Shown here: in pieces, positions 22,201 through 64,000 of the stretch | Layout of the letters: every line of letters starts with the position of its first letter | Position numbering within the stretch: the stretch's first letter is position 1 | Origin: Amphiscolops sp. MND2022 | Lineage: Eukaryota | Length of the DNA: 64,000 nt | Assembly: GCA_964187785.1 (NCBI GenBank) | Contig: OZ076412.1 | Coordinates: 33,232,001 to 33,296,000 of the forward strand | Direction of reading: 5' to 3' | Program-made: the position numbers and the translations under genes | The notes under the pieces: model-generated | Seen by the model: only the letters and a program-made list of their open reading frames with translations | Database searches by the model: none | Told to the model about the DNA's origin: nothing

Positions 22201-23045
22201 GCAGTCCAGAATCTTGCTGCTGGCCATAATAATGTGAATGCACAGCAGCCTATTCAATGTTTGTTGTTTATTCACTGTCCAAGATGACGTGAATTACGTA
22301 ATCAACCATTCTGGCAGAAATGATTGACAATTTAATTGACCAATCAGATTAAAGTACACTTTTTGGTACTTTCCTAGTGCATAATTCATTTGCTTTTTGC
22401 CTTGTTTTGTGTACGCCACGCCTTTTGTTGAAATTTTCAGCTATTTCCAAGTCTTTTGAATTCGCGTTTTCAAGTTTAACATCGGTAATTCATATTTATA
22501 GTCAGTTCATTTGTAGATTATTGTTTCATTTCTCATTTTAATTCCGACTAGAGCATAGTACTGATCATCATACTTGTTTATTCTCATCCGTGGTTACCTT
22601 CTTTCCTGCTCCAACGTCCTAGTTACTTGGAATTCAAGTTTCCGAGATGTGGACTCCCCCAACAAACAGACAAACGAACAACAATCAGCCCCACAGCAAC
22701 AGCTCATTGAAATGAGTTCCCAAATGCCCGCAGCGAGCACTTCTGAAGAGTTTTAGTTTCGTTTTCTGATTAGGACTATTCGGTTTTCTTCAGATTTTTT
22801 TCCTGATCAGGTAGGGTTTCAAATTGGATAGCTGGCCAGGCTACCAAGAAGATTGATCTACTTGTCTTCGATCACAATTTTAGTCTCGAACTTTTAGAAG
22901 CGTATCCACTTCCGGTTTGAAATCGAGTCATTTCCGTTCAATTAAGACTTCTGGAAACTACTTCCGGTTTCAGATTGCCTTTCTCACGGAAAACAACACA
23001 TTTCGTTCACTTTTGTCCATCAACAGAAATCTTGGTTTGTTTCAG

Positions 23046-27459: not shown

Positions 27460-30400
27460 TTAGTATCTGTAAGAGTCTGAGTAGTTTGGGTTGGGATTAG
27501 GACGTAAGTTGTATTTTTCACTACGCGTATTCATGGGTTCTTCTTGCAATGGGGTATTTTGTGGGTTTTCTGGGGTTTTTTGAGTTTGTCGTTCTGGTGT
27601 ATTATCTTTTGGGGTTTTTTGGGAGATTTCTGTATCACCATCTTGAATTTCTTGCTGGATTTCATTATGGTTTTCTTCTTCGCGTTCAGTGGGCTGTTCC
27701 ACTGGGCTCCACCCGCTGTTTTTCGGAATTTTGGGGGAGGGAGGGGGGTTATTTTCAGGTACTTCAACGGGTACATATTCAATGTCATCAGTATTATGCG
27801 TATAATCTGGAGGGCTTTCCTCAAAAGGGTTAGGCCCCAAATTTGTGTTCCATGATTGGGCATATAAGTCATCGTGTGCCACTGGCATTTGATCATCTTT
27901 CTGCCAATCAGATTCTCGTACAAAGATATCGGCTAAAGGTGTTTGCGGCGTGAATTTTCTCAACCGGATTCTATGTAAGAGTTGTGTTTTGTTTGTACCT
28001 AGTCTCCTAACAATGTAGTTATTATTAGGAAGGACTTTTTCGACTTTGTACGGACCCTGCCATCTGAATTCCCGGAACGGTATTTTTGTTGCTTGTGTGT
28101 CAGCTTTCGGGTTTAAAATGTAGCAGTAGTCCGTTGTTTCTAACGGTGATGCTTTTGCTTTCCTATCATAATAGGCTTTGTACTTGAGATAAGATTGCAT
28201 TATGTTCTTTTTGGTCTGATCTAGAAGTATTTTCATTCGTCGTTGTAATTCTTCTGCAACGTCGGTTTGGAGTTGATATTTCGGATTAGGATTGTATCCT
28301 AATTTATAGTCCAGTATGTTGTGTGGTATGCGGCCATGGAAGACACGTGAAGGCTCGCAACCAAGCGACGCATGATAAGTTGTATTGTGGTTTAGTACAG
28401 CTAACGGGAGAAATTTATGCCAGTTATGCCGAAATTCTCCAGTTGCTGCTTTGAGTTGGGTTTTGACTGAAGCATGTGTTCTTTCCAGAAGTCCTATTGT
28501 TTGAGCGTGTTTCATTGTTGCATGTTTTAGTTCAACGCCTAGGACAGCTGTAACTTCATGGGTTACTTGAGCGTTGAATTTTGTGCCAAGATCCGTGATG
28601 ATTGTTGTCGGAAGGTATGTATGTTTGCATAATATGTCCATTATGACTCTGGCTACTGATGTTGCATTGATGCGTGTCACTGGATATGCAAACAGGTATC
28701 GAGAGAAAACATCGATCGCTGTGATTATATGGTCATATCCACCGCTGGGTGGTAGGTTTGGAAGAATGTCCATTTGAAGGATGTCTTCAGGGCCGAGGTC
28801 CCATTCCGGGCAATTGAGTAGTTCGGTCCTGAGGAGGTCGTTATTGATCCTTTTGGTTTGTATGCAGGTTTGACAATTACTTACCCATTTTTTAATGTAT
28901 TTTGCGATGCAAGGGTAGTAGTATTTTTGTCTCAGTTCTTGTATCATCTTTGTGATACCCGGATGGTTCGAGTTGTGTCCATGTAAGGCTTGGAGTAGTT
29001 CTTCTAGGAGTTGTGTTGGAAGCAAAATCTGATAATGCGAGGTGGTTCCAGTGTCTGTGTAGTATTTCCTCGTTAGAACTTCTTGCTTAATTTCGATTCT
29101 GGTTATATTTTGGAGGTAATGCTGGTATCTGTAGTCAGATGCTAAGTCGTTTTCATCAAAAGTGTTGCCTTCTATTTTGGCTCTGAGGTTCTGAAGTACA
29201 ATGTCGTTGTTTTGTTCGAGTCGGATTCTGGCGTTGTCTCGGAAATGTCCTACCGAGCAAGTGTTTAGGCCTGATGTCGGTTTGTGGAATTGTTGAAGTT
29301 CAGTAACATTGTTTTCTGGGTCATTGTGAGTTTCATTTTGAGCTTGGTTTCTCACGTTTTGCTTTTCTTTCCAAAGTTGGTTTTCATCAACTTCGTCATC
29401 AGGGAGGATGTAGATTTGTTCTTCTTCCACTGTACCCGATGATTGTATATTGACTTCTATTTCTTTCGTTTGGATATCATTTCTTAAGCTCATTTCGAGT
29501 TTTTCGACTGGGTTGACTTCCGTTCTGGATAGGAAATCTGCCGCAGTATTCATTGAACCAGCAACATGGGCAATTACAAAATTATATTGCAGGACGTAAT
29601 CGCATGCGTTCCATAGTGCTGAAGGAATAAGTTTTGCTTGAAAAAAGCGAGTAACAGATCTGTTGTCGGTGAATACTATGACTGGAAAGGTGCTTCCCCA
29701 CATGAGGTGTCCAAATTCAACAAAAGCAAAGTATATGGAAAGGAATTCTTTCGCATAGATTGACAGTTTTGTTTGTGTTGGGTTAAAGGTTTTCGAGCCA
29801 AATGCTATAGGTGCATAGGTTTTGCGTTTGGACTGGAGTTTTTGGTTGGGGTCGTCTTCTATCATGATAGCATATCCAGCTGCTGTAAAGCTTGCATCAG
29901 ACATGACTATGAGTTGTTTGTCTTTGAGAGGTTGTCTCAATGCTAATTGGCAAGAGTTTTCGAGTAGTTTGTTCAGGTTGGTGAAGTCTTCTACCAAATT
30001 CGTGGGTACGTAGAATTTCGAGGTTTCTTTAAGAAGTTTGAATAATGGGGATAACCGTTCAGAAAGTCTCGGTATGTAATTGCGGTAATAATTTAAGAAT
30101 CCGATATACCTTTGGAGTGCTTTTTTGGATTTGGGAAATCTCAGTTTTGATAAGAAGTCTTTGACTTTGTCAGCTTGAGGAGCGACGCCTTCAGGTGTGA
30201 TTGTGCGGCCTAGAAAGTCAACTTGCTTAACTCCGAAATGGCATTTGGACATTGTGAGTTTCAGACCAGCATTTCGGATGCATTCGAAGACCGTCCTGAT
30301 GTTGGCGCATAACTGTTTTGAGTCGTTTGCTGCTATACCAATGTCATCGACGTACTGGGCACATTAGTCGGCCTTGATCGCCTTATCAAGGTACTCCCTC

Positions 30401-32341
30401 ATGAAGCTTGAAAAGGCCGAGAGAGATCTGCTAAGTCCTTGGGCGAGTCGCCGATAAGCAAAGGTTCGGCTTGCGAAATTGAAAGCAAGCATCTGAATAG
30501 ATTGGTAGTCTGCCATTTGGAGGCAGTGGTAAGCTTGGGAGCAATCTAATTTGCAGAAAAGTTTCTTGCCTGTCATATGTTGTGCTGCATCCGACAATGT
30601 GCTTACCGGGTGATTATTATTGATGTAATCTTCAGTGATTAAATTGTTGATTTTCCTGAGGTATACAAGTAGTCTGAGGCGTCCATTTGGTTTGCGTTGT
30701 GCAAAAATTGGACTGGCGTATTTTGAAAAGGGTAAGGTTGTTATAATGCCATATTTGTGTAGAAGTGCTAGTTCTACCGTGATATCATCTTTGAGGTTGA
30801 TTGGTGTTGGTAAACTTTGGCTGTATGCTGGTCGATCGTCGTTTGGTGTGAGTTTGACTTTGAATTCACGATTGGTGCCGATGTCGAATCGATGTCTGGC
30901 AAAAATATCGTGAAATTCGATGAGGATTTCTTCGATTTGTTTTTGTTCTTCGGGGTTGAGCGTTGTGTCTGTCCAGTCAAAATTCGAAAGGAAAGCTTTT
31001 CTTGATTTTTCATTGTCTTGTGGGTTGAGTTGTTCAAGTTCTTTGAGCTCAAGGAAATCATTGTAAATTCGTTGTTGGATTGGGGTGTACGTTGTAGGAT
31101 CCCCTGGTTCTTCTGGTGTCGGGAACCAATAGGATTCTTGTTCGGGGTTTTGTGAAGGAACTTTCAGTAGTTCATTTATGTAGATCTCGGTTGTTTCTTC
31201 GTGTTGTATCATGAATGACAACATCGCTGGATCTACTGGTTGTATATGTTTTATTTGTTCTGGTGTGAGGATTTTGAAGTCTGCTAAATAGGGTGTCACA
31301 GATTATTGTATATGGAAGTTCTGAAAAGTTGATGATTTGGTACCCGATAGCATTATTGTTGACCGTACTAAGTGACGATGTGATGAAAATGCTGTCATGA
31401 TTTTCAAATTGTGGTGAAGGTGTGACTATTTCTGTTGCGTCGTGGTCCAACAGGTGGGGCATTCTGCTTGCTATGGCGAGAGTTTCGCCTGGTTGAAGGG
31501 TGTATGTATTTTCAGTAAATAATGGCGTTGTCTGACGCATTGTTACTTGCGTGTCTGGTTTTAGTTGCATTGAGAGGTATGGAAAAGTTAAGATGCCTTG
31601 TGTGACATCAAAAACTGCATTGTTTCTGCGAAGAAAACAGAGGCCAATGAGTGGGTTTGGTAGGTTTTTCATGATGATGAAATTTTCTCGTAACATGAAA
31701 TCAGCCACTTCGAATTCAAGTAGTACTGTGCCGATTGGTACTTCTAGTTGACCATTGGCTACCATAATTTGAAAATTTGGTGGTGGACCAGTATCTTTTA
31801 TTGCTTCATTGGCAATTAATTTGATTTTGTTTATGTCCTGTTCAGAGATTGCACTAGTCAGGGCTCCTGTGTCAATGAGTCCATCAAGTGTAAGTTTTTC
31901 GAAGTCCATTGGCATGTAGTACATGTGGCGTTTTCGTTTCAATGTTAGGGAGGTTGACATAGGTAAGTATGACAGGTTGCGTTCCTTGTCAAACTGGATG
32001 TGGTTTGTGATATCTTCGTCTAAAAGGGGTTGTTTTTGTTCATTGCAAGAGAAAGTGCTCGGGTGGTACATTTCTGGTGAATTTTCTGTAAGTGTAGGAG
32101 AGGTTTGGATGTTGACTGAGAGATACTTGTCAGGGGCATCTCTCATGAGGTCATAGTAGGATTCTTGTGGAAGTTGATTACTGTCTGAGTGTGTAGATGT
32201 TTGATGTGTGTAGTCTGGTTCTGTAGTCAGTTGTTTAGGTTGGATATTTATGGTTTCCACTTGACGCTGCCAGTCGTCTTGTGGTTTTTGAGGTGTTATT
32301 TGGGCGTTTTGGTTGGTAAGGCGTGGCGTTTCTAGTTTAAA
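27460..32341 (-). pseudogene. pol: Element A pol (protease, RT, RNase H, integrase), one frameshift and one stop
   Basis: LIDTGALTSAIS; YASPIFAQRKPNG; KLDCSQAYH; YVDD just after a premature TAA at 30364-30366; DASFTAAG, YAKEFL; HGHNSNHPG..CQTC; QMDILP, TDLG, ERTHAS; WQGPYKV. +1 frameshift near 31290. Confidence 0.96.
32335..32341 (-). promoter_or_regulatory. -1 ribosomal frameshift heptamer U UUA AAC at the gag/pol junction (also in the duplicate at 36426-36432)
   Basis: gat tta aac tag in the gag frame. A -1 shift gives FKLETPRL..VETINIQ, continuous with the protease ORF. Confidence 0.75.
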
Positions 32342-33438
32342 TCCTTGGAAGAAGATTGTTGAGGTCGTTCTATTTTTGGTTTTATGGGTTTTCTAGCTTG
32401 TTTGTAAGCTTCGATGACTTTCTTTTGAGCTTCTGTGAGATTCCACTTCGATGGTCGGTTTTCCATATTGGCACCGAAGTAGCAGTTTTCTTCTTCATGA
32501 CCTGGTGTATTGCAGTTTTCACATTTTTCTGCGTCCGGGTCCTCTTCAAGTTTACGTCGTTTTGCTAGCTTGGGGCAGTTAGCCATCATATGGCCCGTCT
32601 CCTTGCAGTAGCGGCACTGGTCATTTTTGATTGTCTTGTTAGGCACTGTTTTTGGAGTTTGTGTTTTAGAGTTTTCACTTTGCTTTTTGGTCGATTTTTC
32701 CACTTTTTGTTCTTTTTTAGTTACGGTCATTTGGGTTTTGACCGATGGTTCATCTGCTTCCAGACCGTTTAGTTCCATCTCCCTCTCGAGATGTTTTACA
32801 ATCTGGTCATATGTGCCGTTCTCAAGATAGGCTTGATTGATGGATTTTTTGAGGTGTGGGGGCATCTTTGCATAGAGTAAATTCTCTATCATCTGTTGTG
32901 CGTTGTCTCCGAACGCTTTTTCGGCACTCTCTTGGAGTTCTTCGAGGAAGTCTGGTAATTTTTGGTTTTCGGGGTCGAAAAAAGTCTATTGAATCGGTGC
33001 TTAGCTGAGGCACTAGATTCTGGTTTTACATATTTTCTACGAAAGACTTTCAAAATATCTTCGAGGGTTGTAGTTGGGGTTCTTTGTATGTTTTTGAAAG
33101 TTTTTAAGGCCAAACCTCTAAGGTGGGCGTGGAAGTGATTAATTTTCATGTCTTCGGTTAGGTTTGGTTGCATTCGGAGTGTTGTATGGAACAAATCTTC
33201 GAAGTATTCGAATTTTTCATTTTTCTCATTTTTGCCGTTGAATGTCAATGTATTTTACGGGTGGAAAAGTGATTGCGGTGTGTTTTTGTTTGCTAGTTTC
33301 TCTATTGCCTGGGCAATTTGATTTACTGGGTCAGAGGGTGTTTCCGTGAGTGTTGATGTTGGGCGGCCTGCGCGGGATCCAATGGTATCATTTAAAGGTT
33401 GAGAATTTTGTGAACTTTGTCTATGGAGATGTTTGTTA

Positions 33439-33451
33439 GCTCCTGTCACCA
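33439..33451 (-). promoter_or_regulatory. Primer binding site TGGTGACAGGAGC of element A (tRNA-Leu-like, inferred)
   Basis: Starts immediately after the LTR-terminal CA. The same 13-mer follows element B's LTR. Confidence 0.85.
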
Positions 33452-35126
33452 TGTGATAATCCTCATCCAGGCTTTCTGCATCAGACTCTTCGTCGGAATG
33501 GATTGTTACGTCTACGTCGGACTCACTTCGAAATATAGGTTTTGCAGGATGTTTGAGATCTCTCATTTTAGAAGCCCGAAGAGGATAATCTTCATTTTCT
33601 GAGTCTGAATTATTGTTATAAGATGCGTGTACTCCAATAGACCCGATTGTTTTGGATCCCGAAGGTTGCATGTTTTGTATAGTATTCTCTTCAGATCTCG
33701 GGTTTGTTACCGTAGACACACTTTTGTTGGACTTTATTTCTTTCAGAATTGCGTCTAACTTATTCTCCATCTCTTCTCTCATTTTTGCAATCCTATCATT
33801 GTTCTTTTGCTCAAAATTCTCAGTCCACGATTGGATTTTATTACTTAACTGACTAGGTTCGATCAATTGACTCCTGATTCCAACATCATCCAAGTTTTCC
33901 TGGGTGTTAGGATCTGTATTAGTTAAAGTAATATTACCTTCGGTTGGTGTTTCTACTAGAGTTTCATTGGGGCCCCTTTCTGGAGATGGGGTAGCCAATC
34001 TCCTGGACCTTCTACTCCTTTTGTTTCCCATTCTTCTCAAAGGAAAATCGTATTATAGTTGTTGGGGAAGAATTTGAATTTATTCGAGAGAATTATTCAA
34101 AACAATTCGAGTGATGAAACAAGATGTGAGCCAGAAAATTGCTTGTACAAAAGTCAGGTTGAAATGTGAGCAACTGCTTGGTGGGTGAATAAAATCACGA
34201 CTGAAAAAGGTCCCTTCAGATCTGCCTTTCCAAAAATATAGAAAAGATGACGATCGTTTTTACTGATATCATTGTTTAAAGAACTAAAAATAGCATAACG
34301 TCACATTCACATCATTCTAATTATATCCTTCAAGTTATGCTGCCATGACACCCTAAATATTATCAAGGGACCGTAAAACCCTAGGAAAGTAATGCTAGAT
34401 GCTGTCTAAAGCGTTTCAAGTATTATTAAATGAGTCAAATGATGCATGAGTGCAAAATGGCAAGAATATAGCTAAAAACGTCTAGTGACGTATATGCGGT
34501 ACACCACTTACCGCATGATAGCGCATATAATGCATATACATCAATATTCATTAATGAATAATAACGCATATACTTCATAATACACATAATGTAACCATTT
34601 GCACATGCGTTGTGAAAATTGCGTAATGACGTATATACGGCATCGCAAAAGCTGCTTAACGACGTATGATTTCATCATGAAAGCGTCTAATGCCGCACCT
34701 GCAGTTTATCTAATAATGTGTATCAACGTATAGTCAAAAACGCACAATGCCGAATATGCATGATTCAGATTTACGTATAATGACGCATACATACTACTTC
34801 AAAAGCGACTTTTAACGCTTGTACATCATACCAATTACAGCACTATGACGCATAATGTGAACGAAATTCATAGGAAAGAAGGTTTCACTCTAACATTTGT
34901 AATGAATCACGTATTTTAGCGCCTTCCTGCATTAATGACGTTATTTTACTAACTCAAAAGTCTCGAAATGACTCAATTACAAAGTTATATATCTAGAATC
35001 TTCATGACTTGATTAGAGTGAAGTAAAAGAAAAAACAAATGTATCAGTATTTGGAGTGTTTGTTTGGGTCGTTGTTTATCTTTCATTGATGCACTCCGGA
35101 TCCATCGCATCTCTGGGGCTGCGACA
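33452..35126 (-). repeat. 5' LTR of element A
   Basis: 1675 bp, TG..CA, flanked by the PBS and the TACCT TSD. Confidence 0.96.
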
Positions 35127-47616: not shown

Positions 47617-49148
47617 TGTCGCAGGCTGCCGCCTGTGATGGCAACCTCTTCACCATCGACCAAAGTGTACCTATGGCCCTACCCGGCACAATGTCAATAT
47701 GATTGCAATTGTTAACAAACTTGAAAACATTATTTGTTCTTCTGGAATTTTCAACACATGCAAATTAGTTTTATGTATTTGTATATTTAGTGCAGTTAAT
47801 ATTTGACAGCAAGCTATATACTGACAGGCAAAAGGAAACGAGTTCAAATGTTTGCATGTCCAGTATAGCTAGCATAACTGCGTACGGCGCGTTGGCCAAT
47901 CAGAGCCTTGCAAGTCTCATTTACAGTTGCTACAATGTATTCATTGCTAATCGGAATGGACCAATACGACTACTTGGCCTAAGCGGTTTTATTGCATTTT
48001 GTCGCTGTACTGTGAAATTACTGAGTAGTTAAAACAAGACAAGTGCGGCTTTGAAACCTATTTAGTCTTATTTGTTGAATTAATGCTATCGATGTTGTAA
48101 TATGAAGTAAAGCCTGACTTTCTGCTCTTTGGAATTAAAGTATGAAATTGATGCTACGTAAAAATACAGGTTGATGTGATGCATAATCCGAGTTGCAATA
48201 TAAACAGTATCATGAAATACCCATATGCAGTGTTGCCCTTTCCTTCTTATGATGAAGTGAAACCAGAAAATCCCTTGCGGCCATTGGCCGTACAGGGACA
48301 TGAATTCATTATACATGTAAGTTGACCTATACATGAAGTTCATCATGTTAAACCAAACCACTTGAACTGTGCGTTGTTCCACGTCCTTGGTGAGTGCTTT
48401 GATATTGCTGCCTCCCCAAGTGCTAAGTGACGTAATGTCACTATTTATAGTGATGATAGAATCTATTTTTACCTGGAAGTTTTTTATAGTAACATGACCA
48501 ATTTTTTATTGCGTGTCATGCCCACTTGCGTATATATACCCAAGTCAGGCTTTTGTGAGACACAATTTAGTTGAACCGATGTTATTCGGTTGCTTCGCAA
48601 TTATACAAATTTTTGTAAAACTCTCCTACTATACTCAATTACAGAAACAATACAATCATTTTCTCCTGTAGAAACACTTTTATGCCTTCAGCAAGGAAGC
48701 AAAAGGCTAAGGTCAGAAAGTAGAGAGAACTAGATATGTTGTCCGAATGCGGCAACATGGACGTGATGTTAGGAGATGGGAATTCTAACTGTAAAGAAAG
48801 AGAACTAGATAGTCTTGTTAATGTCCCAGAAAGGCGACAGGACTTTCAGTCCTTTCCGAACAGAGAAAATTCATCTCAAGAGAATGAACTCATGAATTCT
48901 CACACATCAGCAAGAAATGAGCCTGTTAGGAAAGAAACACTAATAGAGTCAATTAATAAACTATCAGGTGATATGAATGCTAGGATGTCTCGGGAAATGG
49001 AGACAACGATGAATTACATGCAAACTCAGAGTAATAAAGCCATTAGCTGTGCTCTAAGTGAGAGAATAATACCTGAAATACAAAACATGGTGGAAAACTT
49101 GCCTGTGCGCCTGTGATCGAAGGGATCATACGGACATTGCTCCTTATA
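47617..49148 (+). repeat. 5' LTR of element B, copy 2 (undeleted)
   Basis: As copy 1 plus the 183-bp segment that also occurs in the 3' LTR at ~63902 onward. Confidence 0.85.
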
Positions 49149-52100
49149 TGGTGACAGGAGCCAACGAGCCCCAACAACTGATTACTGAATTCCTTACAGG
49201 ACGAATTCACTCTCACCCAGACCTTCAGAGTACAGAATCGGCGTATTGTACAACCATGGACACAACTCTACCAGTAGCACAGACAGTTGCGGCTGAACAG
49301 CCACAAGACACTATCAATCGTCTGGCAGATGTCCTGGTAAATCTCCAAAATAAACCACACTCGAAGACAATCCGACCAGTCACGATGAACTATATAAATT
49401 TTGACGGAAAAACAGAGAAATTCGAATAGTTTGAAGATTTATTTCATACAATGATAAAGATGCATGACTGAACAAATGAAAAGAAAACCAATTTCTTTCA
49501 CTGCTCAGAAAGGGAGCCCTACAAACTTTTCGAAATTTAAACTCTATAAACCGCCAAACTTTGAAGGACGTATTGGTCATGTCCAGTAGAAAATACGTCA
49601 AACCCGAGTCTCAAGCCACACCAAAGCACAAGTGGCACCGACTCATATTTGATCCCAATCCAATCCAAAGAAACTACATGACTTTCTGCAGGAACTCAAC
49701 CAGGGAGCCGAGAAGGCCTTTGGAGAGAATGCTGAAAGTGTGATAGACACTTTGCCATATGCCAAAGAACCATCCAAACTCAAACGATTGGCCAACATGG
49801 CCAGATCAGAAAATGGGACATATGAGAAGATTGTGGCACTACTCGAACTAGAACTCGATTTAAACGCCTTGATTTAAACGATTTTAAGAATCTGATGATT
49901 TACCCCTTGCCACAATGGCTTCAACGCCGGGCAAGGCGCAAAATCTGCTGTCTAATGGCATTGATACCAACAAGGATAATCAATGATCAAACTGCAACGC
50001 TGAAGACCACTTCTGGAAGAACTGCCCAAAGCTCAAAAAAGAAAAAGAAATGGACGTTAAAGTTGGGTAGATGGGTATATGTTGGGTAAATGTCCCACTT
50101 GCAGCAGAACGTCCAGGAGAGAAATGTTGGCGTGGTGCGGGAGCGCACCTTCGTCCCAAAAGGAACAGGCAAGATATCAAAACCACAGATGCCTCCGAGG
50201 ACGAAGGAAGCTCCACCAAATATTACAAATCCACGACGTCCGCATCAGGCCAATCAACTTCAAAGACACCTGATTCAAAAAAACTATCCACGACTCCAAA
50301 AATGTGACCGAATTTTGATACGGCTATATGTCATATCTGACCCATCTAACGTAATTTATAAACAGTCCTTAAGTGACATCAACGGAACACTGTCAGTTGT
50401 CTGGCAGCAACAGGGGGAAAAAGCTTGCATTGAAACTTACAAATTGGTCCACAACGACCGCCCAGGCCGATACTACGGAATGGACTATACTGCAGAATTT
50501 GAAACCCAATTTCAACCACTCCAACTAATTGAAGGTTAAAACACTCAATATAATAACCATGAATATGGACTAGATCCGTATTAGGACAGTTCCCTATACG
50601 ACCAGCAATCCTTACGGTTCAAATGTGAGGACTATCCGGCAACTGATGCTGAGGTTGACCCTGAAGTCCCATAGTTCGAATGTCTCAGGGAGGATAGAAT
50701 CCACAAATCAATAAATTAGAAAAAAATAGATGAAGAGCCGTCTAAAAACGAGACACAGGCCACACCCGGCCTTCTCGACGAGACGGCCTTCATACTTGCC
50801 CTTGTAAGCAAAGAGGGAAAACCGGCATACATATCCTTATCCACAAATCTCGGACCCAAATACAAAAAACAGGTGCTATATTTTCTGATGTACTTTGGGG
50901 AACTAACCCTAGACAGCCTAATAGACACTGGAGCCCTATCTAGTGCAATTCCAGAAGCAGACTCCAGGAAAATCCGCCTCCTAGCACCTCAATCCATAGT
51001 CAAAGAGAGACCAGCTCCCTCTTTCAAATCATGGTCGCAAATGGTTAATTGGAAACCCCCAAAAGCACCGTTGAACTCAAGTTCGAAGTAGGAGATAATA
51101 ATTTGCACGAAACATTCATAGTAATGGAAAAACTGACCGACTCCATCATAGGTCTAATGTTCCTCCAAAGGAATCTTACAGTTCTGGACATGGGACAAGG
51201 CATACTCAACTTCCCATACATCTCCGTGCAACTCAAAGCAGCTGACAATAAAAACTCGAATGTCTTGGATCCCCTATTTAACCCAGATGATTTAGCAACA
51301 CCATACAATGATCGAATCCTAGTGGGGATCAAATCCCAGATTTACAATGAAAATACGGTCACAGGAGTCTTGCAACCTAGTGATCTCCTACACGAAAGTG
51401 CGCCCCAATAGTCACGTTGATCAATGGAACCGTCAATGTCCATATCAACATCTTCATGTTAAACCAATAGACCCGGTGTCCACATGGCATATACTAAACG
51501 AAAGGGAAGAAGGTGCGATTTACTATGTCAGTAGTCTACTCAAGGCCAGCAAAATAATGACCAATACAAACAGTACCGGCTCCAACACCCGAAAACCCAG
51601 GAGTTGAAAACTCCCACACTCCTAAACAACAACGAATTCTTCAAAAACTACGCAACCTACAAGGGGCAGAACAGCTAGACCCCCAGAACGATACTCCAAC
51701 AGCATGAAATCAAAAAGATCGAATCGCTCCTAGTTGAATATCATGATATATTCGCACAACACAGGTTGGACATAGGGATCAACGAGGAGTTCACGGTCAA
51801 ACTAACGCGAAAGGAGAAATCGCCCGCTTATTGCCAAAGTCTACCAACTCCAGTCAACTTGAATGAAGATATCCTGGTCGAGCTGGCTCCATTACACAAA
51901 TATGGCATAATCACGACACTGCCATTCTCAAAAGTTGCCAGTCCCATATTTGCGCAGAAAACATCTAATGGGAAACTAAGACTCTGGTCGATATGAAAAA
52001 ATAAACATTTTCATTTCGGATGATTATATAAATAACAATCACCTGTTTAGTACCCTAACGGACGCCGCGCAACACTTGGTCAGAAAAAAACTGTTCTGTA

Positions 52101-55100
52101 AACTTGTTTCTTCACAGGCACATCATTGTCTTCCAATGGAGGACCAAAGGTCCATAGAGATGCCTGCCTTCAATTTCGCAAATTGAAACTTTGCCTGTAG
52201 AAGACTTGCCCAAAACCTTAGCAGGCATTTTAATGCTTTATGCGAGGGTATCTCGACAAAGTGGATAAAGCCGATCAATGCGCCGACGACATAGGCATAG
52301 CTGCCAACGATGCCAATCATCTACTCAAAAACCGGAGAGCCACATTTGTGTGCATTCGAAAAGCTGGGTTGAAATTAACAATGCACAAATGTCATTTTGG
52401 GGCAACTGAAATAGATTACCTGGGTAGAAAAGTCACCCTGAAGGAGTGAAACCACAGAAAGAAACGATAACTACCTTTTTGGAAAAACAAACGGAATCCC
52501 CAAAAATCCAAAAAGGCCCTACAAAGATACCTGGGCTTCCTGAATTACTACAAGAACTACATCCCAAGTTTGTCTGAGAAACTAGCCCCATTCTTTTAAC
52601 TCATCAAAGAGGACGAGAAGGTCCTTGTGACCACGGAGTTATTACAACAATTCAAGGAAATCAAAAGAAACCTTGACAAATGCAGTTAATTCGCTTTAAA
52701 GCAGCAACTGCCGAACAAACAACTAGTCCTAATGACATATGCTAGCTTTACAGCAGCCGGGTACGCCATTCTCACCGAAGACCATCCAGATCAGAAATAC
52801 ATTTCAGTCAAAAAATCATATGCTCCTATGGCATATGGCTCAAAGACTTTCTCGCCATCACAACTGAAATTTTAAATACACGCCACAGATTTCTTAGCTA
52901 TCTACTACGCATTCAAAGAACTTGGACACATCTTCTGGGAAACCCCCAACTGATCACTAACTTTACGGTCAACAAATCGGTAACGAGGATTTTCCAGACA
53001 AAACCAATAGCTCCAGCACTCTGCAACGCCTGTGACTATGTAATACATTTCAACTTTGTTATAGCACATATTCCACGGAAGACCAATATCGCGGCCGACT
53101 ACCTATCTCGCATGGAAATGGACCCCAAGGAGAAACTAATCTTGAAAATCCGCGATGTCGAAACACGGCCCATTGAGGTAAATGTCCAGTCGGCAGGCGT
53201 ATCAGAAGAGGAGCTGAAGACGATGACGAAACAGAAGCGCAAATTTGGGAGGGTAAAAAACAGAGCCGTAACAACTCAAGTGACCAAGAGGTCGTAATCC
53301 AAATTGATTCCATATCTGAACATATAGTTGAAGAAATCACAAACTCTACCCAGAAATTACGTAGAACTTATCAAATTTTGCTTAAGCAATACAAAGATCC
53401 TATATTACACTAGCTCAAAGCCAAAATTCAGAACAAAGACTACTCTGAAGAAGATCGCCATCAAGATATTCGGTATAAACACTATCTCAACAATTTGAAG
53501 TGAATAGTCCTCAAGGACGAGATAGTCACGGACATTACTATGATGAAACTGGACAAGTCAAACATCACCGAATCCTCTTGTCGAAACACCTGCCAAGAGG
53601 GCTTTTACATGCGTTACATGGAACCGCTCACAAACATTCCGGCATATCTAAAATGTTGCAGAAAACTCGCCAGAAATATTACTAACCCGGAATAGCTAAA
53701 CATGGGTAGAAGATGGGTAGAAGGATGCGAAATTTGTGCAAAAGATAAACGTGTACCAAAAAACACCTGCTCAATTTGCCCGAATGGGACCTTGGACCAG
53801 AGGACACAATGCAATTTGATTTGTTACCAAGTTTACTGATAATTGGAGGCTACCAAACAGTGATGACGGCTATAGATCTTTTCTCAAAATACCTGTTTGC
53901 CTACCCGTTAGTTGAGGTCACCACTTCAAACACGCCAAAGGTCCTGATCGACATCATAAACAGGCATCTCTGCCGACGACGCTCATCACTGATAAAGGAA
54001 CCGCATTATTAAAGGACGAGAATTATTGCATTATTGCAGAAAAACGCAAATTTTTGGAAATACGCTAAAGTGTGCAACTACTATACATCCGCGAACAATT
54101 GACAAGCTTGCGAGGACTCACGCCTCATTAAAAACAAATTTCAATATGGCTTCAGGGGAATATCGCCGGCAATGGCACAAATACTTGCCACTGGCTGTGC
54201 TCAATTACAATACACCTACCATTCCAGTCTTGGCTGTGAGCCGAGCAAAGTCTTTCATGGACGAATTCCCTACAAGGTCCTACATCATAAACTTGGAAAT
54301 AATCCAAATAAAGATTTCTGGACCACAACGGATTTTGCAGAAAAATACAACAGCGAATGCAAACTCTCATTGATAAAACGAAGCAAAATATTATGCAGTC
54401 ATACTTGAAATACAACGAGTATTATGACCGCAAAGCCAAGGTAGCCCCGCTGAACGAAAAAGATTTTTTTATTTTGCAGCCTAAAGCAGATAATCAAGCA
54501 TCAAAAATACCGTTCAGGGATTACCGTTGGATTGGTCCTTATCAAATTGAAAAAGTATTACCTAACGACAAATATATTTTCCGGCGTTCAAATGCAGATA
54601 AAACGCAAATACTACACCGAAGCAGACTGAAAAAGTTTGTCCTAAACACACACTTAGAAAACAAATATTTCAAAAAGAAACTCCAACCTGATGACGAAAT
54701 AATCATTCCGCAAGACGACTTATACACCATTTCATGGGAAGCCGATTTTGACTACCAAGGCTTCGAGCCGAGACAGGACGATAGTTCGAATGAAGCAGCA
54801 CAAGCACCGCAAAGACAACAATGCGAGCAGCGCAACTGATGATTACGTACTTTATGACAATGCGGATGACAACCCGGTAAGACCAAGACCGGCCACCAGC
54901 CGCGACGGCATAATCTCACGAAATGCAAATGAAGACATTTATGGAAATGACCGAAGCAATATGAATGAACAAGAAGTAAGGCAGCCTACGGCTACTAGCC
55001 GAGATGCACTTATCTTACACGATGAAGATGACGTCAACGAGAAAGCTGCAAAAGATAAAAACGCAGCAAAACAGAAAGTTTGCGGCCACTAGCCGAGATA

Positions 55101-55290
55101 ACCCAATTATTGGCGACACGCCTATCGACTCACGAAACGATTTTCATGATGTTACTAGATATTCTCCTAAAAAAGGGGAGGATAATCCCGTGCCCAGAAT
55201 TCAGATAATGGAAAAAAATGGAAAGACAAATTGAGGAGGTAAATATAACCTTCGGTCTAACACCACCCCAAAGTCAGAAATGTTGAATTG
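48682..55290 (+). pseudogene. gag-pol: Element B gag-pol remnant
   Basis: MVTGANE; KFE*FEDLFHT; CNAEDHFWKNC; LIDTGALSSAIP; YGIITTLPFSK.ASPIFAQK; CADDIGIA; YASFTAAGYA; LHGTAHKHSG; PEWDLGPEDTMQFDLLP; WIGPYQI. Many lesions. Confidence 0.92.
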
Positions 55291-57608
55291 GGTCCCCTTC
55301 TTCTTTTTCCCAAGAAGGCATAACTTTTACTGGGACTACTCTGACTCTTTTAACTAATAGATTAATTTTATAAATACAAAAACAACTATTAAAAAACTGA
55401 AATTTACAAAATGAAAAGTCTAGATAACAATGGTGCTCTTTGTACATTTATTCTTTAGTGCTACTTTCACGATGTTCTTGCAAAGTCATCCAGAGCTCTC
55501 TTTGGGGAATATCACCGAAATAGGCAAACGTTTTTTCCCAAGGGCCCAATTGAGTTTCTTCCCAGCAGAGGTTGACACAGAGGAAGATCGAGAAGCTGTA
55601 CTGTCTCCCTTGAAAGAAGCGGTCAGAGTCTTTAAAAATGAAGAACGTCCGAAGGTGTCCACATGAGACCATGGGTCTCCGGATAAACGCGCTGATTTGA
55701 ATTGTAACTCTAGATCTTTATATTTCATCAATGCAGTCTCAGAAGTACAGACTGCAATGGCATCAGGACAATTATACAAATAGGACTTTGCAGGCAATTT
55801 GACACTTGAAAGACGGCAATGTTGGCTCGAAGTATCTCCATCCTGGGATTTGACAGCGGGGAGTTCTTTATGGCTCTCAGTAATGCAAAAACAACGTGAA
55901 CGATAGAAGTGAAATAGTTTGAAGCGGCTACACAGAGTTGGCATTGGTGTCAAGAGCTCGAGAAGATTAGGAATGGTTGGTGCCGGGTGCGTCCTTGATT
56001 CCTGAATAGGTGTTACGGAAGTAATTAACGAATTCGAAGTACTCGCCCTGCAGTCGCTCATCGAGGCCTCAGACACCCAGAAGCTGTCATAGAGGGCGTT
56101 GAAGCAGAAAGAGACCTGGTCCAGAGTTCGGGAAAGCAGCACGTGTGGGTCGAAAAAACCCATGCCCTGAACAATATCAGCGGTGAGGTGGATGTCTCGC
56201 AACAGTGATTCCAATAGTGACACGACGTAATTGCCGGCCTTCACAAGGAAGCTCTTCTTCTAAGCTCCAACAAGTTCTTCCAAATTAGGTGGCCCAGTTT
56301 TCTTGTCGGAGTATGAGCGGCAGATTTTCGAACTGCAGGCTGCCTCGAGATCTGTTTTGAGCTTGAGCCGCTGAGCAAAGTCCGGGAAGACAACTGCCTG
56401 AGGTCGTCTGGGCACAGATGAAGCAACTCAGTCCTGTTAACGTCGTCAGGAAAGAACTTGGGTAAAATGGCATGCCGATAAGCCAGGCTGCGGCAAAGCA
56501 CTTTGCATCTGAACATGACGTGAAATCAAAGGAATATCAAATTCGAAGAGGTTGTCCTGGAACAATGTGGGACACCTCATCCATAAGGCCGAAACATGCG
56601 TTCAGAGGAGACAAGATCAAAGAAATCACAAAGTGTATGAAAGGAAGCAACTCACAACCTCGAACTAGGAGGGATAGGAATTCGAGCCTGACTGTGAAGA
56701 GATCGACCATAAAGATAGTCCAATCCTATACTCTTTGACTGAAAAGGAAACAATAAATTTATGATGCGAATCGATAGAAAATTCCGATTTACCCAAACGG
56801 AACAACGGACGATTATGCCCTACAAGAAAAAGTTCTAGAATAAATTCCGAATTGATTATATTGTTCTTTACTCCTTGCATCTTTGTCATGTAGTCACGAA
56901 TGGATGTCCAGTGAGCCACAATTCTGCGCATAATAAAGGTATCCGCTTGAGCTCCATGTTACAATTGGCAACGTCACACAACACGAAAAGGTGGATCAAT
57001 ACCCAAATCACTAGTTTACACTTGTAAAAGGACAGAGAAGTCTGCATGGTGAAAGAGAACTTAATTAGCAAATATAAAAAAGGTAAAGCGAACCTTGGTG
57101 AGTTCAGGGCACTGTGGAGCCCAGGGCTGGCTTAAACAACCACTCAGGAAGGCAACCAGAAAGTTAATCTGAGAGAAGATATCTATTGGCCCGAAAACGT
57201 AACAAGTCTCCAGGACGCTGGGGTGCATAAGCTCCTGCAGGGAGAAGACGTCAAATCTAAAGGGGTACTGGACCCCAAGATCGTACAGTCTGAATGATTC
57301 TGAAGATTGAAACAACATTGAAGAGCAGCCCGAAATGCAGACGAGGTTGGGCTTCGTTGACACAAAGGAAAGGAGAAAAGAGATGGCTCCCAAAAAATTT
57401 CCTGGATAATACTCAACTCGGCTGTGTCGGTGGCTGTGTCGGTGGAGCTCAACTCGGACGAGGGAGTCCTCTCTCCTGTATCTGATGCGAGTGGACATGC
57501 CCTGGGTGCTGAACTCGACGGAGTACAGATTAGTCGCAGTGATATGATCGGCTATGTCTCCAAGACCACGCATGAAAATCTGATGGAAAATGTTCTGATA
57601 TAGAACAA

Positions 57609-57609
<1 letters not shown>

Positions 57610-57644
<35 letters not shown>
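57610..57644. repeat. (CA)n microsatellite adjacent to the gap
   Basis: About 17 CA units. Confidence 0.95.
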
Positions 57645-57645
<1 letters not shown>

Positions 57646-57845
57646 NNNNNNNNNNNNNNNNNNNNNNNNNNNNNNNNNNNNNNNNNNNNNNNNNNNNNNN
57701 NNNNNNNNNNNNNNNNNNNNNNNNNNNNNNNNNNNNNNNNNNNNNNNNNNNNNNNNNNNNNNNNNNNNNNNNNNNNNNNNNNNNNNNNNNNNNNNNNNNN
57801 NNNNNNNNNNNNNNNNNNNNNNNNNNNNNNNNNNNNNNNNNNNNN
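57646..57845. other. Assembly gap of 200 N
   Basis: Run of n. The round length suggests a fixed-size scaffolding gap. Confidence 0.98.
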
Positions 57846-58406
57846 CCAGAGCTTGATGGTTCGTAAACATGCCAACTCTGCAGTTTTGATAAATTCCCGT
57901 CTCGAGGCACGAACACACCTCGCAGGGAAAGCGATCCCGTGCATCAACGAGTGGTACTTCTAGGAAGTATGGGTTCTCCTTTCGAGTCATATGGCCGTCA
58001 AGACGTAACTGTCTTTTCCTCTGACTTGGTGAGTGGTAATCCCAGTAACCTCGTCAGTTTCTTGTAAGTGGACAAATCTCCAATTTTGGTCGTTTCGAAG
58101 GTGTCCTTCAGTTTTGTAGTGCCTTAGTATCTCGCGACCACCTTTTGAGTATTTAGACACATTGGTCTTGCAGAGCATACAAAACAATTTTAGTTTATTC
58201 TGAGTGGGGTCAATAGGGCCGGAAACGAAGGTCCTTGTCCATGGGATGCCCTTGAAGTAGGCATGTTTCATCACTGCTCATTAGCATCCGTCTCTTCAGT
58301 GGGGGGCCAGGAGGGCCAGTGTCGGCAGTTACTCAAACCCCTCCAAGAATAGTCAGTGGCTGGTAGTAGGTGGGACTGTGTGCTGGCGTGACATTCCCAA
58401 TCATTA

Positions 58407-60938
58407 CAGTGCCAAAAGTGGGTTAACACACTTTTGTGCTATTAAGTCACCGAAATCCACTGACAAACTTTTAAACATGTATTTCACTGATTTTCATTGG
58501 ATTCCGCTGTAGCCTGTTCTGGATTCCACTAACATATCTAGCTAATGTACAAAAATGTGTGCACCGAAATCCACTGCTTTTCACTGCCAACTGATTGAAC
58601 CAATCGCGTCCGCTTATTTCAACTATTAGCGAATTTCGCTGAAACTTGCAGTGGATTCCACTTCAGCTTACAGTGGATTCCACTTTGGCTTACAGTCGAT
58701 TCCACTTTGACCTACAGTCGATTCCACATTTCAACTTGTGGAATTGACTGCAAAACGAGTGGAATTGACTGTAAGCCAAAGTTGAATTCACTGTAAGCTG
58801 AAGTAGAATCCACTGCAAGTTTCTTCGAAAGGACAGATCAATGAAACATAAATAATAACTTTCTAATAATCTTCTTGCAATGTTTCATGCTGAAACAAAA
58901 CTTTTGGCCCTTTTGTTTTGTCTCCCCACACCTGTTAGAATATATTATATAAATTTATTATTATTAATTATTTACTATTATTAGATAAATAAAGTCGGTA
59001 TTTGCTACTTCTTACAGCTAATGATAAAACACTCTATCGCGGAGGATTACAAATATATCTAAGTTGATGAAGTTATCTCGCAATACAGCACTTACTTAGG
59101 TTCGGTTCAAATTATGCAGGAACGGCGAAAAATTTTCGATTCCGCGAAATATTCGACAAAACCAAAACATGCTAGTATGATCTATACTGCCGGGGATTTT
59201 TATTCGTTTACCCGAAATTTTGATTTCGATATTTAGCCGATATTCGATTATCCGAAGTCTACTGTAATTGCAAAAACAACATCTTGAAAAGTGTAGGGAA
59301 AAGAAAAAAGTTCCAGTCTTTTTCATTTTTCTTTGTTTCAGGTCAAATTCATACAAATTCAGTGGAGCAATGGGCGAATGGTGGGAACTTCAAAATCACT
59401 CTTTATGGTTGCAATGTTTACAACTTCAATGGTTACAACTCACACCTGATGCGTTCCTCTCTTCTCTATTATTATAAAATTTTCTCCTTAGTATAACAAT
59501 TTTGTTGAAAGTTTTGTTTACGTCTTTCTTTTTGTCATGATAAAGTGTAGTTTTTTCAATTGAAAAAATTTCCTTCACCAATTTTTGCCAAGAAGTTGTA
59601 GTGCTTGAACTGTGTTCACGGTCAACTCACGGTCGAAAAACAACAGAATCACTTTCTGGCAAATACTCTATGCAATGTCAACCGACTCACGGTTGACAAC
59701 CGACTCACGGTGGAGACAGAAAAATCACTGGAAAATCGTTCCTCATGATTTTTTGGGAACAATCACACCTAATTTTATCACCTACTAATGAGCGCACGTA
59801 TGACCTTGTAGTTTTAGTTCAACGCGTGCAATCAAATAGTTTCAAACAGGTGTTGAAGAATTATTTTAACAGCGTGCGGTAATACCGTGAGAAAAATGTT
59901 GCAAGATTAAAGTTATTCGAAGTTGAGGCTAAAATTGAGGCGTATCAGAAGACGCAATAGGAGGGAAACTGGAACACAAAGAAATAGATTTTGATAGTTT
60001 TTCGGCTTCATCATTATCGACGATTTGATACACCATTGACACGCTCAATTTCATTGTCTAAAAGTTTTCGTTTTTCGTAGTATCGAAACAAAACACAGTG
60101 AATAATATTTTCCCTTGCAACGTCTTATTCACCTGAGTTCAGATTTCCATTCATCATTCGGCTTGTAATTCAATTTGAAAGAAACTTTGGTATCCGCCTT
60201 GAGGTACTTGAAAAATGGAAACTAGTTGTACCTAAAATACACGAAAGAGCTGTGTGTGAAATTTGATGTAGAATTGATAAGGTCTCCGTTGCGGTCAGCA
60301 GTATGCTTGAAGTGAGTTTTCCGGAACCAAATTTTGGTATCCACCATGAGGTATATGAAAAATGAAAACTAGTTATACCTAAAGGTATGTGTGTATAACT
60401 AGGTAACTAGCAGGAACTCTGTGTGAATTTTTGATGCCCACTATGATTCAATCAAAGTATGAAAAAAAGAACAGTGAAACTAAAGCGGTAAAACGGTGCT
60501 TGATTGCGGTAATAACTCACTGGGAATAATTTGCCAGATGAAGAAATTCTGAATCCTTCTTTTTGTGACACTTGCTCATTCTGAGAAAGTTTCTCATTCT
60601 CAAAACTGAACTCGTGAAGGAAGAACTTTCAGGCACTGAAGTACATGAACTCCACTTTCTTTCGATGGTTGAGAGTTTTTGTAGATTGGTATTGAAAGAA
60701 TTCAGTGAAATAATTCAGTGAAAAAATTCAGTGAATTCCACTAAAACACTGCAGATCCGAATGTTTAAGGTATTTGATAGTGGAATTCAATGCTTTGCAG
60801 CGAAATTCGCTGCCGAAAAATCGCCAAAAGAGTGGAATCGACTGCAACGTAATAGCATTTGTTAGTGGATTACGCTGCACGCTTTCCAAAACTGCCGTCC
60901 AGCGAAATCCGCTGCAAAAATACCCACTTTTGGCACTG
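58407..60938. mobile_element. Non-autonomous Tc1/mariner-type TIR element inserted in element B's antisense gene
   Basis: ta|cagtgccaaaagtgggt ... acccacttttggcactg|ta, palindromic target tcatTAatga, and many subterminal ttccactg/gtggaa motifs. No transposase ORF. Confidence 0.85.
58634..58830. repeat. Imperfect palindrome with 73-bp arms built from 22-bp cagtggattccactt..ctta units
   Basis: 58634-58706 is the reverse complement of 58758-58830 with few mismatches. Confidence 0.85.
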
Positions 60939-63122
60939 TAATGATCTGAGTCGAAGTGGTCGGCTGCCCTGCTTGTCTCTCCACAACTCTGAATAGGGGA
61001 TCAGTCCCGTTGGCAGTCTCAGCCCCTGATATTGAGCGAGCCAAGGTTTTAGGGGTCCTCGTCTGAATTGATGGCCCCCGCTAGTGTAATCATCAGTGGT
61101 GTCTCCCCATGCTGGTCTCGTCACCAGAACTTTCAGGGTAAGTTAGGGCCAGTGTGGCACAACGCTGTGCATATCCCTTGCGCTTATCTCGGGGAGCTCC
61201 TGTGTAGAATGGAGTAACAAGGACTTCATCATGTGATAGGGTGTATGACAGACTCGTCAGCGGGGATAGTCCTCAGAATGGCTTGCAATTTTTCCGCATT
61301 AAGGGCAATAATGGGATGTCCGACTGGTAATTTAAAATACTTTTTGGTTGCTTTCCTTTTCCAGTCAGTTGTACGTCGGCCGTGGATAGTTTTGCCGGTT
61401 ACTGATGCTGCTCAGCGTCACTCTGTCCTGATTTACTGTGGAAGTCGCCCTCGGAATCAGGGAATGCTCCGGGATCAATAGTCAGAGCGCCGAGGCAAGC
61501 AGAATGGCTTCAACGCCGGAACTTTCAAATTGCTCCTCAGCGTCACTAGTGTCCGCATACAGGGCTTTTGTTTTTGTGCAAGGAAAAACTTCATTCCCGT
61601 TAGACGTCCCTGGACGTCTTCCTGAGAATCTTGTAGCACAGTTATATAATCCGAGACGGACACCTTGGGAAAAATTAAATTTTCGGAACACGTGGTTACC
61701 ACATATCTCGGTGGCGGAAGGAAGGCCTTGACGGTATCGGTTTCAAGAAGTGCCATGGAAGAGACAGTTCTCTCGATAAAAGCAGTCACGCTTCTTTCAG
61801 TGGACTTACTCTTATGTGAGTCCTCAGGAGAAGGCCGATAATGGACGGTTGGTTCTGATATTTTCTTCATTTCTTTCCATTTCTGTCTCTAGATCATTGA
61901 CGGCATCAGCTGAATGTAGAATGGGTCTGGCAAATCCTTCTGGCTTGACATGTCTAATTGGAGGGAAATTAGATTTTGCAGGTATCTTCCCGAAGATGAA
62001 TCCAAAAACCGCTGGTAAATGCTTCCGGAAGTGAAAGGAAGAAACAAAGTGTTACGATCGTTTACAAAAGAAACAGGAAGTTTGTGAACGATATGAAGAG
62101 CCTTGATCAAGCTCATTTCCGTTCAAATGAAAAGACCAGATGGCTTACCTATGGCTGTCCGACATTTGTAGAATGAGAGTTGGAGAGAAAGAGAGTTGTG
62201 GACAGTTCCAGTTGACCAATCACACTGCTGACAGAGACTTAATAAACCGAGTAGAATGACGTCCGAGGAAGGCATATCTGAAGGGATTGGATAATGGAGG
62301 GGAAGCAGCAGCAGCCCAGTGATCCAGATGTAAAAACCGTGATTAGATGACTGTTAGCCAAAGAACAGAACTGTTTGAAAAGACGTGATGAAAGACGGAA
62401 AGACTAATGAACGGACTAAAAAACTAAGTAAACAATAATTAAAATACGAAAAGCGCAATAAAGCTATGATTAAACTGAAAAAATTAAGCAAATTGCTAGA
62501 ACTGCAGAAATTTGGAGATCGTGGCTAACTGTATTTGATGTCAATTTATTGTACAAGTATGGATATTATTTTGTGGATGGAATCTGCCAGGGCAATCCAC
62601 AAGAATTAGGTCTTTCGAAACTTTTGTTTTCTCAGGGATTTAGTATATTTAAACAATTATGTTACTTATTTCCTTATTTGGACAATTACTTCTTAATCCG
62701 CTATTTTGGAAAGTCAGCTGAATGGGAGGTTCTTATTGGCTACCTCTGCTGGAGACCACGCGTGGCCTGAAGTTTTACCTATCACCTCTTGAGAAAGTCA
62801 AGTGGCAATCAAGAGATAAACCTTTGATGAAGTCCTTGAAGGCATCTTGCCATGTTATGTAAATGAAAGTAAAGAAGACGTAAACAGGGCGGCTAATTAG
62901 AATTTTCAAAGAGTGTTTTGGAGAGTTTCCTTATGCGAACGAGCGTCAGGAAAGGCAAAACTCCGGGAAAGGAATCACAAAGAAGTTTTGAAAGGTTTCA
63001 GAACAAAAAATTATAAATCTTCCTTTCAGAAAAAAACAAATTCAGTCTGTTCACTCATGATTAAAATTTTGAACAGCCTAAAACTAATCAAAATTGCGAA
63101 AAAACTGATAAAAACCAGAAAT

Positions 63123-63967
63123 ATGGCCAAGCGATTCCCACAAGACTTTCAAGGCGCCGCGCCCCAAGGAATAGAAATAGTATGCCTGTCTAGCGACGAT
63201 GAAGAAGAAATGGACGACCGTAGAAGAACGTCCGCATTAGACCTATAACTGTCATCAGAAGATGAAGAATACGACGATGAAATCATGATTGTGGCCCAAT
63301 GTGTTGAATATGAAATATTAGCACCCATTCCCGTCCCTGGTTCATCAACATCAAAAACTGGGAGTACCAATTTGGAAAATAGGCCTTCAAGTTGCGAGAC
63401 GCCTCAGCCAGATAAAAGCCTGTAGCCTAATTTTGATCAATTCTTCTTTCCTCTGGGGAAGGAAAACGGTCCAATACGGCGGGACGACCGTATACGAAAT
63501 AATCACCCAATAAAAATGTGCAGTGAACTTGTTCCCATGGTAGACACTCCCATATCACCGCCACCCGATTATAAAGGACCGTCCTATATTTATTTCCCAA
63601 ATTACACTGTATATACGGAGCCACAGCAGTCCTTGGATACAATTACAAACCATTTCCAAGGGTTGGAATTTAATGGAAATGGCCCACTGGCGAGTGGCTC
63701 AGACTGCGTGATTTGTGGAAAATCAACAATTCAAATTCAACGTGAAGCAGTATCCGATTATTTGGACAAGACGGTTGTTCCGGCAGAAACAGCATTACAG
63801 GCCTAAGCGCGCAAGAGAGCCTTTATAGAGGGAATGCAAGTTGGTAGTTCTTATTGCTACCTGCGGGAGTGTCAAAGGCAGCCGCCTGTGATGGCAACCT
63901 CTACCTCATCGACCAAAGTGTACATATGGCCCTACGCGGCACATTGCCAACAGGATCGCAATTGTAA
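63123..63967 (+). pseudogene. Accessory sense ORF of element B (SIM-like motifs plus CxxC domain), crosses the PPT into the LTR
   Basis: MAKRF..IEIVCLSSDDEEE..LDL*LSSEDEE..; CVICGKSTIQIQREAVSDYL..RKRAFIEGM..AGVSKAAACDG. In-frame stops and a late frameshift. Confidence 0.75.
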
Positions 63968-64000
63968 ACAAGTTTGAAAAAATTCTTTGTACTTCTGGTT
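63870..64000 (+). repeat. Start of element B's 3' LTR
   Basis: TGTCAAAGGCAGCCGCC.. after TGCGGGAG; homologous to 47617-47747. Confidence 0.85.

Follow-up and report, generated by a model that had tools for sequence, protein, structure and literature searches.

Antisense extra genes between pol and the 3′ long terminal repeat (LTR), termed aORF-3R, are known from plant LTR retrotransposons, including maize Grande (gene23), rice RIRE2, Wallabi and Gran3, Silene Retand, and bean PvRetro13 (PMC7264820). The accessible portions of that paper state that the origin and function of such genes are unknown, that most of these antisense open reading frames (ORFs) have no similarity to other transposable elements, that ORF4 of Retand contains a domain classed by Pfam as "transposase 28", and that gene23 was reported to have its own upstream promoter and a nuclear location. 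The same paper and PMC8365987 cite brtn, an extra gene of the Boty-like Ty3/Gypsy elements of Botrytis and Sclerotinia. Here, we analyze a 64,000-nucleotide stretch (the window) of contig OZ076412.1 of Amphiscolops sp. MND2022 (assembly GCA_964187785.1, positions 33,232,001 to 33,296,000), which contains two related Gypsy elements, A (minus strand, 18427-35126) and B (plus strand, from 47617), each carrying a gene antisense to gag-pol. This gene is a real, old, and selected accessory gene, in a class of elements for which antisense extra genes were already known.

As far as the plant aORF-3R genes are described in the accessible text, the gene resembles them in its position between pol and the 3′ LTR, its orientation, its presence in most copies, its conservation, and the tandem repeats of the 3′ region. 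It differs from these descriptions by its five coding exons (about 1,100 to 1,200 codons), its conserved introns, and a product combining a zinc finger with a predicted RNase H-like core. According to the partial accounts of brtn, that gene is likewise an antisense extra gene behind pol in a non-plant Gypsy element, whereas the protein encoded here is different and far larger. The exon-intron structure was established by comparing copies at 40 genomic loci, comprising 20 B-type loci (long open frames, from 150 matches) and 20 A-type loci (taken down the ranking). In element A, the gene is organized as follows:

22946..24415, plus strand: exon 1 open frame; likely acceptor at 23045, zinc finger at 23978-24058, 5′ end provisional
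24416..24495, plus strand: intron 1; 80 nt, phase 0
24496..24981, plus strand: exon 2; 162 aa, predicted RNase H-like core
24982..25053, plus strand: intron 2; 72 nt, phase 0, absent in lineage C
25054..25188, plus strand: exon 3; 45 aa
25189..25257, plus strand: intron 3; 69 nt, phase 0
25258..25339, plus strand: exon 4; 82 nt
25340..26179, plus strand: intron 4; 840 nt, phase 1, with a 65-bp tandem array inside
26180..27282, plus strand: exon 5; 366 aa, all-helical by prediction, its stop about 180 bp from that of pol

Splice sites at homologous codons were found at both ends of introns 1 to 4 in 29, 29, 35, and 29 of 41 copies, respectively, the remaining copies being broken or belonging to five excluded as miscalls. 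The sizes of the inner exons are constant (162 to 165, 45, and 27 aa), and the introns range from 64 to 1,029 nt. Alignment of profiles built from 8 A-type and 12 B-type open copies (probability 99.87; E = 1.8e-31; 619 columns; 23% identity) brought the four exon junctions into register. A further 20 loci were selected with divergent queries; 13 of these passed the filter, each with the full set of four introns. In a third lineage, C (copy L114), introns 1, 3, and 4 are kept and intron 2 is read straight through, as it is in 19 of the 20 lineage C copies. A previous reading of the window from its sequence alone (the sequence-only reading) had proposed an intron position conserved between A and B. 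The codon and phase are indeed shared, but A-type and B-type copies have four introns in common, not one or two, and the AAG/GT intron that this reading highlighted, common to both types, is missing from the third lineage. Division into two genes at the stop that follows exon 4 was rejected, since in all three lineages a phase-1 GT donor lies before this stop, with a matching acceptor ahead of exon 5. Tandem arrays of 65 bp are present upstream of the gene (21975-22197) and in intron 4 of A (25744-25978); they contain many CCGCAT/ACGCAT-like words, also present in the LTR, and are candidate binding sites. Internal tandem duplications involve the end of pol and exon 5 in copy L022 and exons 1 and 2 in copy L115.

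The antisense gene is an old cargo of a Gypsy lineage and not a nested transposon. It lies tail-to-tail with a Gypsy pol, about 180 bp from the gene stop, at 57 of 60 sampled loci (39/40 and 18/20); the three exceptions are interrupted, and one of them retains the pol tail only. Reciprocally, the gene accompanied all 20 lineage C pol matches sampled at even rank steps (19 with exons 1 to 3 and 5, one with exon 5 only). LTR pairs were found in 8 of 9 further elements and 5-bp target site duplications (TSDs) in 7 of the 9 (both flanks fetched). The boundaries are LTRs with 5-bp TSDs and not, as for an active hAT transposon, its own terminal inverted repeats (TIRs) with an 8-bp TSD; no inverted repeat longer than 9 to 13 bp and no shared motif were detected around the gene in 10 elements, in a search made without a shuffle control. 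Among the findings that the sequence-only reading had named as overturning its claim of an ancient gene rather than a chance insertion were TIRs with 8-bp TSDs and a misjoin at the 200-N gap in element B. Neither of these two was encountered, since TIRs are lacking, the TSDs have 5 bp, and the same TSD, ACGCC, brackets element B outside both LTRs (47617 to about 65504), indicating that a single element spans the gap. The claim of antiquity is borne out by the linkage in both directions, by purifying selection, and by the five deep splits shared with pol (see below). Each search of the 1.07-Gb genome returned about 6,700 to 7,500 first-look candidates, of which only 105 to 150 were scored.

The carriers are Ty3/Gypsy LTR retrotransposons: in element A, gag is followed by protease (PR), reverse transcriptase (RT), RNase H, and integrase (Pfam), the order is identical in B, and both have TG..CA LTRs, a primer binding site (PBS), and a short TSD. 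The two LTRs of element B are 12.6% diverged. The features of the carriers are as follows:

18427..20101, minus strand: element A 3′ LTR; 1,675 bp, TSD TACCT at 18422-18426
20058..21116, minus strand: second accessory ORF of element A; 352 codons stop to stop, in gag-pol sense
27460..33451, minus strand: element A gag-pol (PR, RT, RNase H, integrase); Pfam
33452..35126, minus strand: element A 5′ LTR; 99% identical to the 3′ LTR, TSD TACCT at 35127-35131
18427-19027 and 37543-38143, minus strand, and 49000-49160, plus strand: gag-start/LTR regions
47617..49148, plus strand: element B 5′ LTR; TG start, TSD ACGCC ends the left flank
49149, plus strand: PBS-like TGGTGACAGG, directly after the element B 5′ LTR
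49149..55265, plus strand: element B gag-pol; stops and frameshifts, pol 77 to 79% identical in nucleotides to young B-type copies
63426..63900, plus strand: second accessory ORF remnant of element B; sense strand, C-x2-C motif, runs into the 3′ LTR
63870..64000, plus strand: start of the element B 3′ LTR, which extends past the window to 65504 and is followed by TSD ACGCC

The antisense copy of element B is a pseudogene; it has stops and frameshifts, and its exon 1 is interrupted by a 2,532-bp insertion flanked by TA:

55448..56508, minus strand: exon 5; helical C-terminal part, stop at 55450-55448, one internal stop, frameshifts, deletions
56509..56655, minus strand: intron 4; GTGAGT..TTCAG, phase 1, as in A
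56656..56738, minus strand: exon 4; about 27 codons, frameshift near the start
56860..56975, minus strand: exon 3 remnant; frameshifted, splice sites now non-canonical
57094..57594, minus strand: exon 2; open, predicted RNase H-like core (fold from an A-led alignment), AAG/GT donor at 57094/57093
57595..57845, minus strand: intron 1; (AC)17 microsatellite and the 200-N gap (57646-57845)
57846..58406, minus strand: exon 1, 3′ part; C-x2-C-x16-H-x5-H zinc finger at 58181-58101
58407..60938, unstranded: nested insertion; 2,532 bp, 17-bp TIRs between TA dinucleotides, splits exon 1
60939..61951, minus strand: exon 1, 5′ part; Ser/Thr/Glu/Pro-rich, decayed, candidate ATG at 61951

The donor of exon 1 is hidden in B because the gap covers it. 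The nested insertion has CAGTG..CACTG ends, which we take to be Tc1/mariner-like, and internal 22-bp arrays; no long ORF was seen in it. The homologue that the sequence-only reading had placed at 55300..61880 exists, with boundaries corrected to a candidate start near 61951 and a stop at 55450-55448. All the motifs quoted in its support are in the sequence (FFATGPLD..WCRVC..HYRTESH in A, 23870-24090, plus strand; FVSGPID..FCMLC..HYKTEGH in B, 58277-57990, minus strand), as are the donors CATAAG/GTAGTA of A (24981/24982) and ACCAAG/GTTCGC of B (57094/57093) and the acceptor GTTCTATATCAG/AACATTTTC of B (57595/57594). The homology of the two copies of the window also stood against 1000 shuffles for the zinc-finger exon (z = 22.8; 0/1000) and exon 2 (z = 10.9; 0/1000). 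The last exon gave a z score of only 2.5 (22/1000 shuffles) because the B copy is decayed. Against an open B-type relative, its score was 13.4, the two short exons being weak on their own (their scores were reached by 21/300 and 10/300 shuffles).

The ratio of nonsynonymous to synonymous substitution rates (dN/dS) over the exons was 0.02 to 0.26 in 8 of 14 pairs; dS was saturated in 5 pairs, and one near-identical pair gave 2.96. The corresponding values for the opposite-strand reading were 0.5 to 2.1. These comparisons indicate that purifying selection acts on the antisense gene. Gene and pol trees of 24 copies, built with FastTree, shared five of five deep splits (support of 0.81 to 1.0) and 8 of 21 splits overall. 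In a separate comparison of close subfamilies, 6 of 14 splits were shared. Identity between lineages is 52 to 60% for pol and about 20% for the gene. Some copies combine 99% identical pol and LTR starts with genes that are 56 to 57% identical; for L031 and L034, the values are 99% for pol, 98% for the LTR start, and 57% for the gene. Conversely, L029 and L031 have 97% identical genes and 72% identical LTR starts. In lineage C (L129 to L148), pol is 96 to 99% identical and the antisense genes 45 to 99% identical. Divergent genes on similar pol and LTR sequences and the few splits shared at the tips point to exchange of the gene among subfamilies. Judging from these patterns, the deep branches of the gene reflect vertical descent, and its tips modular exchange. 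Thus, the vertical inheritance put forward by the sequence-only reading, and the tree congruence by which it was to be checked, hold for the deep splits but not for close subfamilies.

The predicted protein begins with a long N-terminal region rich in Ser, Thr, Glu, and Pro, followed by a basic patch, a C2H2 finger, an RNase H-like core, and, at the C-terminus, a helical part. This order of finger, core, and helical part is that of hAT transposases (Hermes and the THAP12/ZMYM1-like DUF4371 group). Exon 2 has a predicted RNase H-like fold with the Hermes transposase among the tied best matches, and the first catalytic strand is in register; Hermes was matched weakly by two separately folded exons, in collinear order. 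For exon 5, Foldseek and a second-look alignment gave generic helical matches only, Hermes not among them. The N-terminal finger, C-x2-C-x16-H-x5-H, is conserved; its Pfam matches were below threshold only (e.g., zf-C17orf113, E = 0.081), and the finger type is provisional. Unlike in hAT transposases, the DDE triad is not conserved: the column of the first aspartate holds T, E, Q, or H, and that of the second is G in 30 of 34 copies, both columns being inferred from register and not from a printed structural alignment. In one A-type subfamily (L050), exon 2 carries Asp at the two inferred catalytic sites, and several others keep D or N at the second. Sequence comparisons did not reach significance: hhalign against hAT gave the correct register at an E value of 0.15, within the shuffle range, and profile comparison with an Ac-type set gave E values of 0.17 to 0.74. 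Pfam scans of exons and alignments returned nothing above cut-off and no Pfam hAT domain, and searches of PDB sequences returned nothing at an E value below 0.05. In the ESM atlas, the neighbors of exon 5 were weak and mixed, and exon 2 had no usable match. Own-genome searches with PF25431 and PF14291 found no match and were uninformative, since the controls were equally without match. On the predicted folds, the antisense protein is likely a hAT-derived, catalytically dead transposase, differing from hAT elements also by its residence in a retrotransposon.

An origin outside transposases, from a captured host gene or as a de novo chimera of an RNase H/actin-like fold with a zinc finger, would suit the four introns, which befit a cellular gene, the nonsignificant sequence link to hAT, and the non-transposase folds that tie with Hermes at the top. 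We consider it improbable, given the collinear matches of two separately folded exons to Hermes, the lack of a named cellular homologue in protein searches, and the 60 sampled loci, which, bar the three interrupted ones, yielded no homologue outside an element. One could also envisage that an active hAT transposon became nested in these elements by chance insertions, or that the assembly is misjoined at the gap, since authentic hAT elements are present in the genome and the gap lies inside the B gene. This explanation is refuted by the constant site and orientation at 57 of 60 loci, the lack of DDE and of inverted repeats, and the TSD that brackets B across the gap.

As to function, a dead transposase might act at the DNA step, by binding cDNA or chromatin to aid nuclear entry or guide integration. 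Such a role would fit the transposase-like order with its zinc finger and basic patch, the gene's presence with every sampled lineage C pol copy, and the nuclear-import role proposed for antisense ORFs in the accessible text of PMC7264820. It is nevertheless somewhat unlikely, because a protein made from a separate antisense transcript would not be coupled in cis to Gag-Pol, the free exchange of the gene between pol types suggests that it lacks a tight partner in pol, and the TSDs of 9 elements have no evident target sequence in common. Doubtful as well is a host-directed counter-defense factor with a protein or RNA target, whose diverse alleles would be swapped in an arms race, DNA binding being secondary. 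The gene does diverge far faster than pol between lineages, its alleles vary from 45 to 99% identity on 96 to 99% identical pol and are uncoupled from the LTR start, and PIWI-type RNase H domains occur in the fold lists; yet dN/dS is low, not raised, over the tested regions, and the zinc finger hardly varies within a lineage.

We favor, with a probability of roughly 45%, the view that the fixed five-exon antisense gene, likely a dead hAT-type transposase, encodes a trans-acting nuclear DNA-binding regulator predicted to aid transcription of the family or its escape from silencing. In three deep lineages, the gene is carried within elements that are bounded by LTRs and have 5-bp TSDs. Introns on the strand opposite to a genomic RNA escape the spliceosome when that RNA is copied. 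The element would be copied via its sense RNA, in which the introns of the gene, being antisense, would remain unspliced and so persist through retrotransposition. A promoter of its own, in the spacer beside the second accessory ORF, would transcribe the gene, and the transcript would then be spliced. The predicted protein has the order of a transposase, with an RNase H-like core devoid of catalytic aspartates, and a dead transposase would retain DNA binding. In plants, transposases and their dead derivatives are described as sequence-specific regulators in the accessible part of bioRxiv 10.64898/2026.08.24.746577. The examples there, Spm TnpA and VANDAL VANC, are transposon-encoded regulators that derive from transposases or lie beside them, and they resemble the present protein as accessory factors that probably arose from a transposase, lost catalysis, and were kept by a mobile element; those proteins serve DNA transposons of their own kind, whereas the carrier here is an LTR retrotransposon. 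The module is exchanged among subfamilies, probably by template switching. Finally, and this is the weakest step, the protein would work in trans on a conserved target. Weighing against a strict lock-and-key version of the regulator, gene identity does not track the LTR start (Spearman coefficient of 0.11). Subfamily-specific co-variation of the two was tested for and not seen.

With a profile of exon 5, matches were obtained to 844 clusters (50% identity) of unnamed proteins. Three of their representatives had no relative above 29 to 34% in the present genome, which suggests that the gene family likely occurs in other species. A search for longer proteins with the wide exon 5 alignment retained 0 of 7,999 candidates, and a scan of metagenome contigs gave 140 pattern matches, 0 of which were confirmed. 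At slightly better than even odds, an LTR lineage domesticated a DNA-transposon transposase once, in the distant past, without its catalysis, as an obligatory, intron-containing, and swappable antisense module now present in thousands of copies in several hosts. This would be domestication of a transposase by another transposon and not by the host, one class of elements using the enzyme of another as a regulator. In the literature searched, we met with no antisense gene of an LTR element that is both multi-exon and transposase-like, although subscription journals, Repbase, and supplements could hold one. Giant Gypsy elements, such as planarian Burro and plant Ogre, are also large and abundant with extra coding capacity; in the accessible text of PMC6431247, the extras of Burro are polyprotein domains or sense accessory ORFs, and the word "antisense" does not appear. 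The extra ORFs of rotifer elements differ, the accessible text of PMC5408684 containing neither "intron" nor "transposase." The present family allows the question of antisense genes to be tested by comparison alone: it has a likely origin that can be traced, numerous young copies in three deep lineages, a marker of intron gain or loss, and natural module swaps. It also indicates that a retroelement can retain a large spliced gene that lies antisense. As for annotation, each search gave about 7,000 candidate loci (provisional first-look counts) for repeat-borne genes that gene finders would take for host genes or hAT elements.

The second accessory ORF was detected at 38 of 40 loci. It has about 300 to 350 codons, is head-to-head with the antisense gene, and ends within the 3′ LTR; its tail has a conserved C-x2-C motif, and a Pfam scan gave no match. 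In A and in B-type elements, the gag frame opens about 200 codons inside the LTR and continues through the PBS, so that a gag start is present in every 3′ LTR. Further decayed LTR elements, at 1-8500, 12781-18426, and 35127-35372, are unrelated to the pol of A at an E value of 1e-4 and have no match to the antisense gene; element A is inserted in the end of one of them. Two near-perfect tandem duplications (99%), at 31279-39463 (4.1 kb) and 42431-51737 (about 4.6 to 4.75 kb), each repeat a 5′ LTR, gag, and flank and may be real or an assembly artifact.
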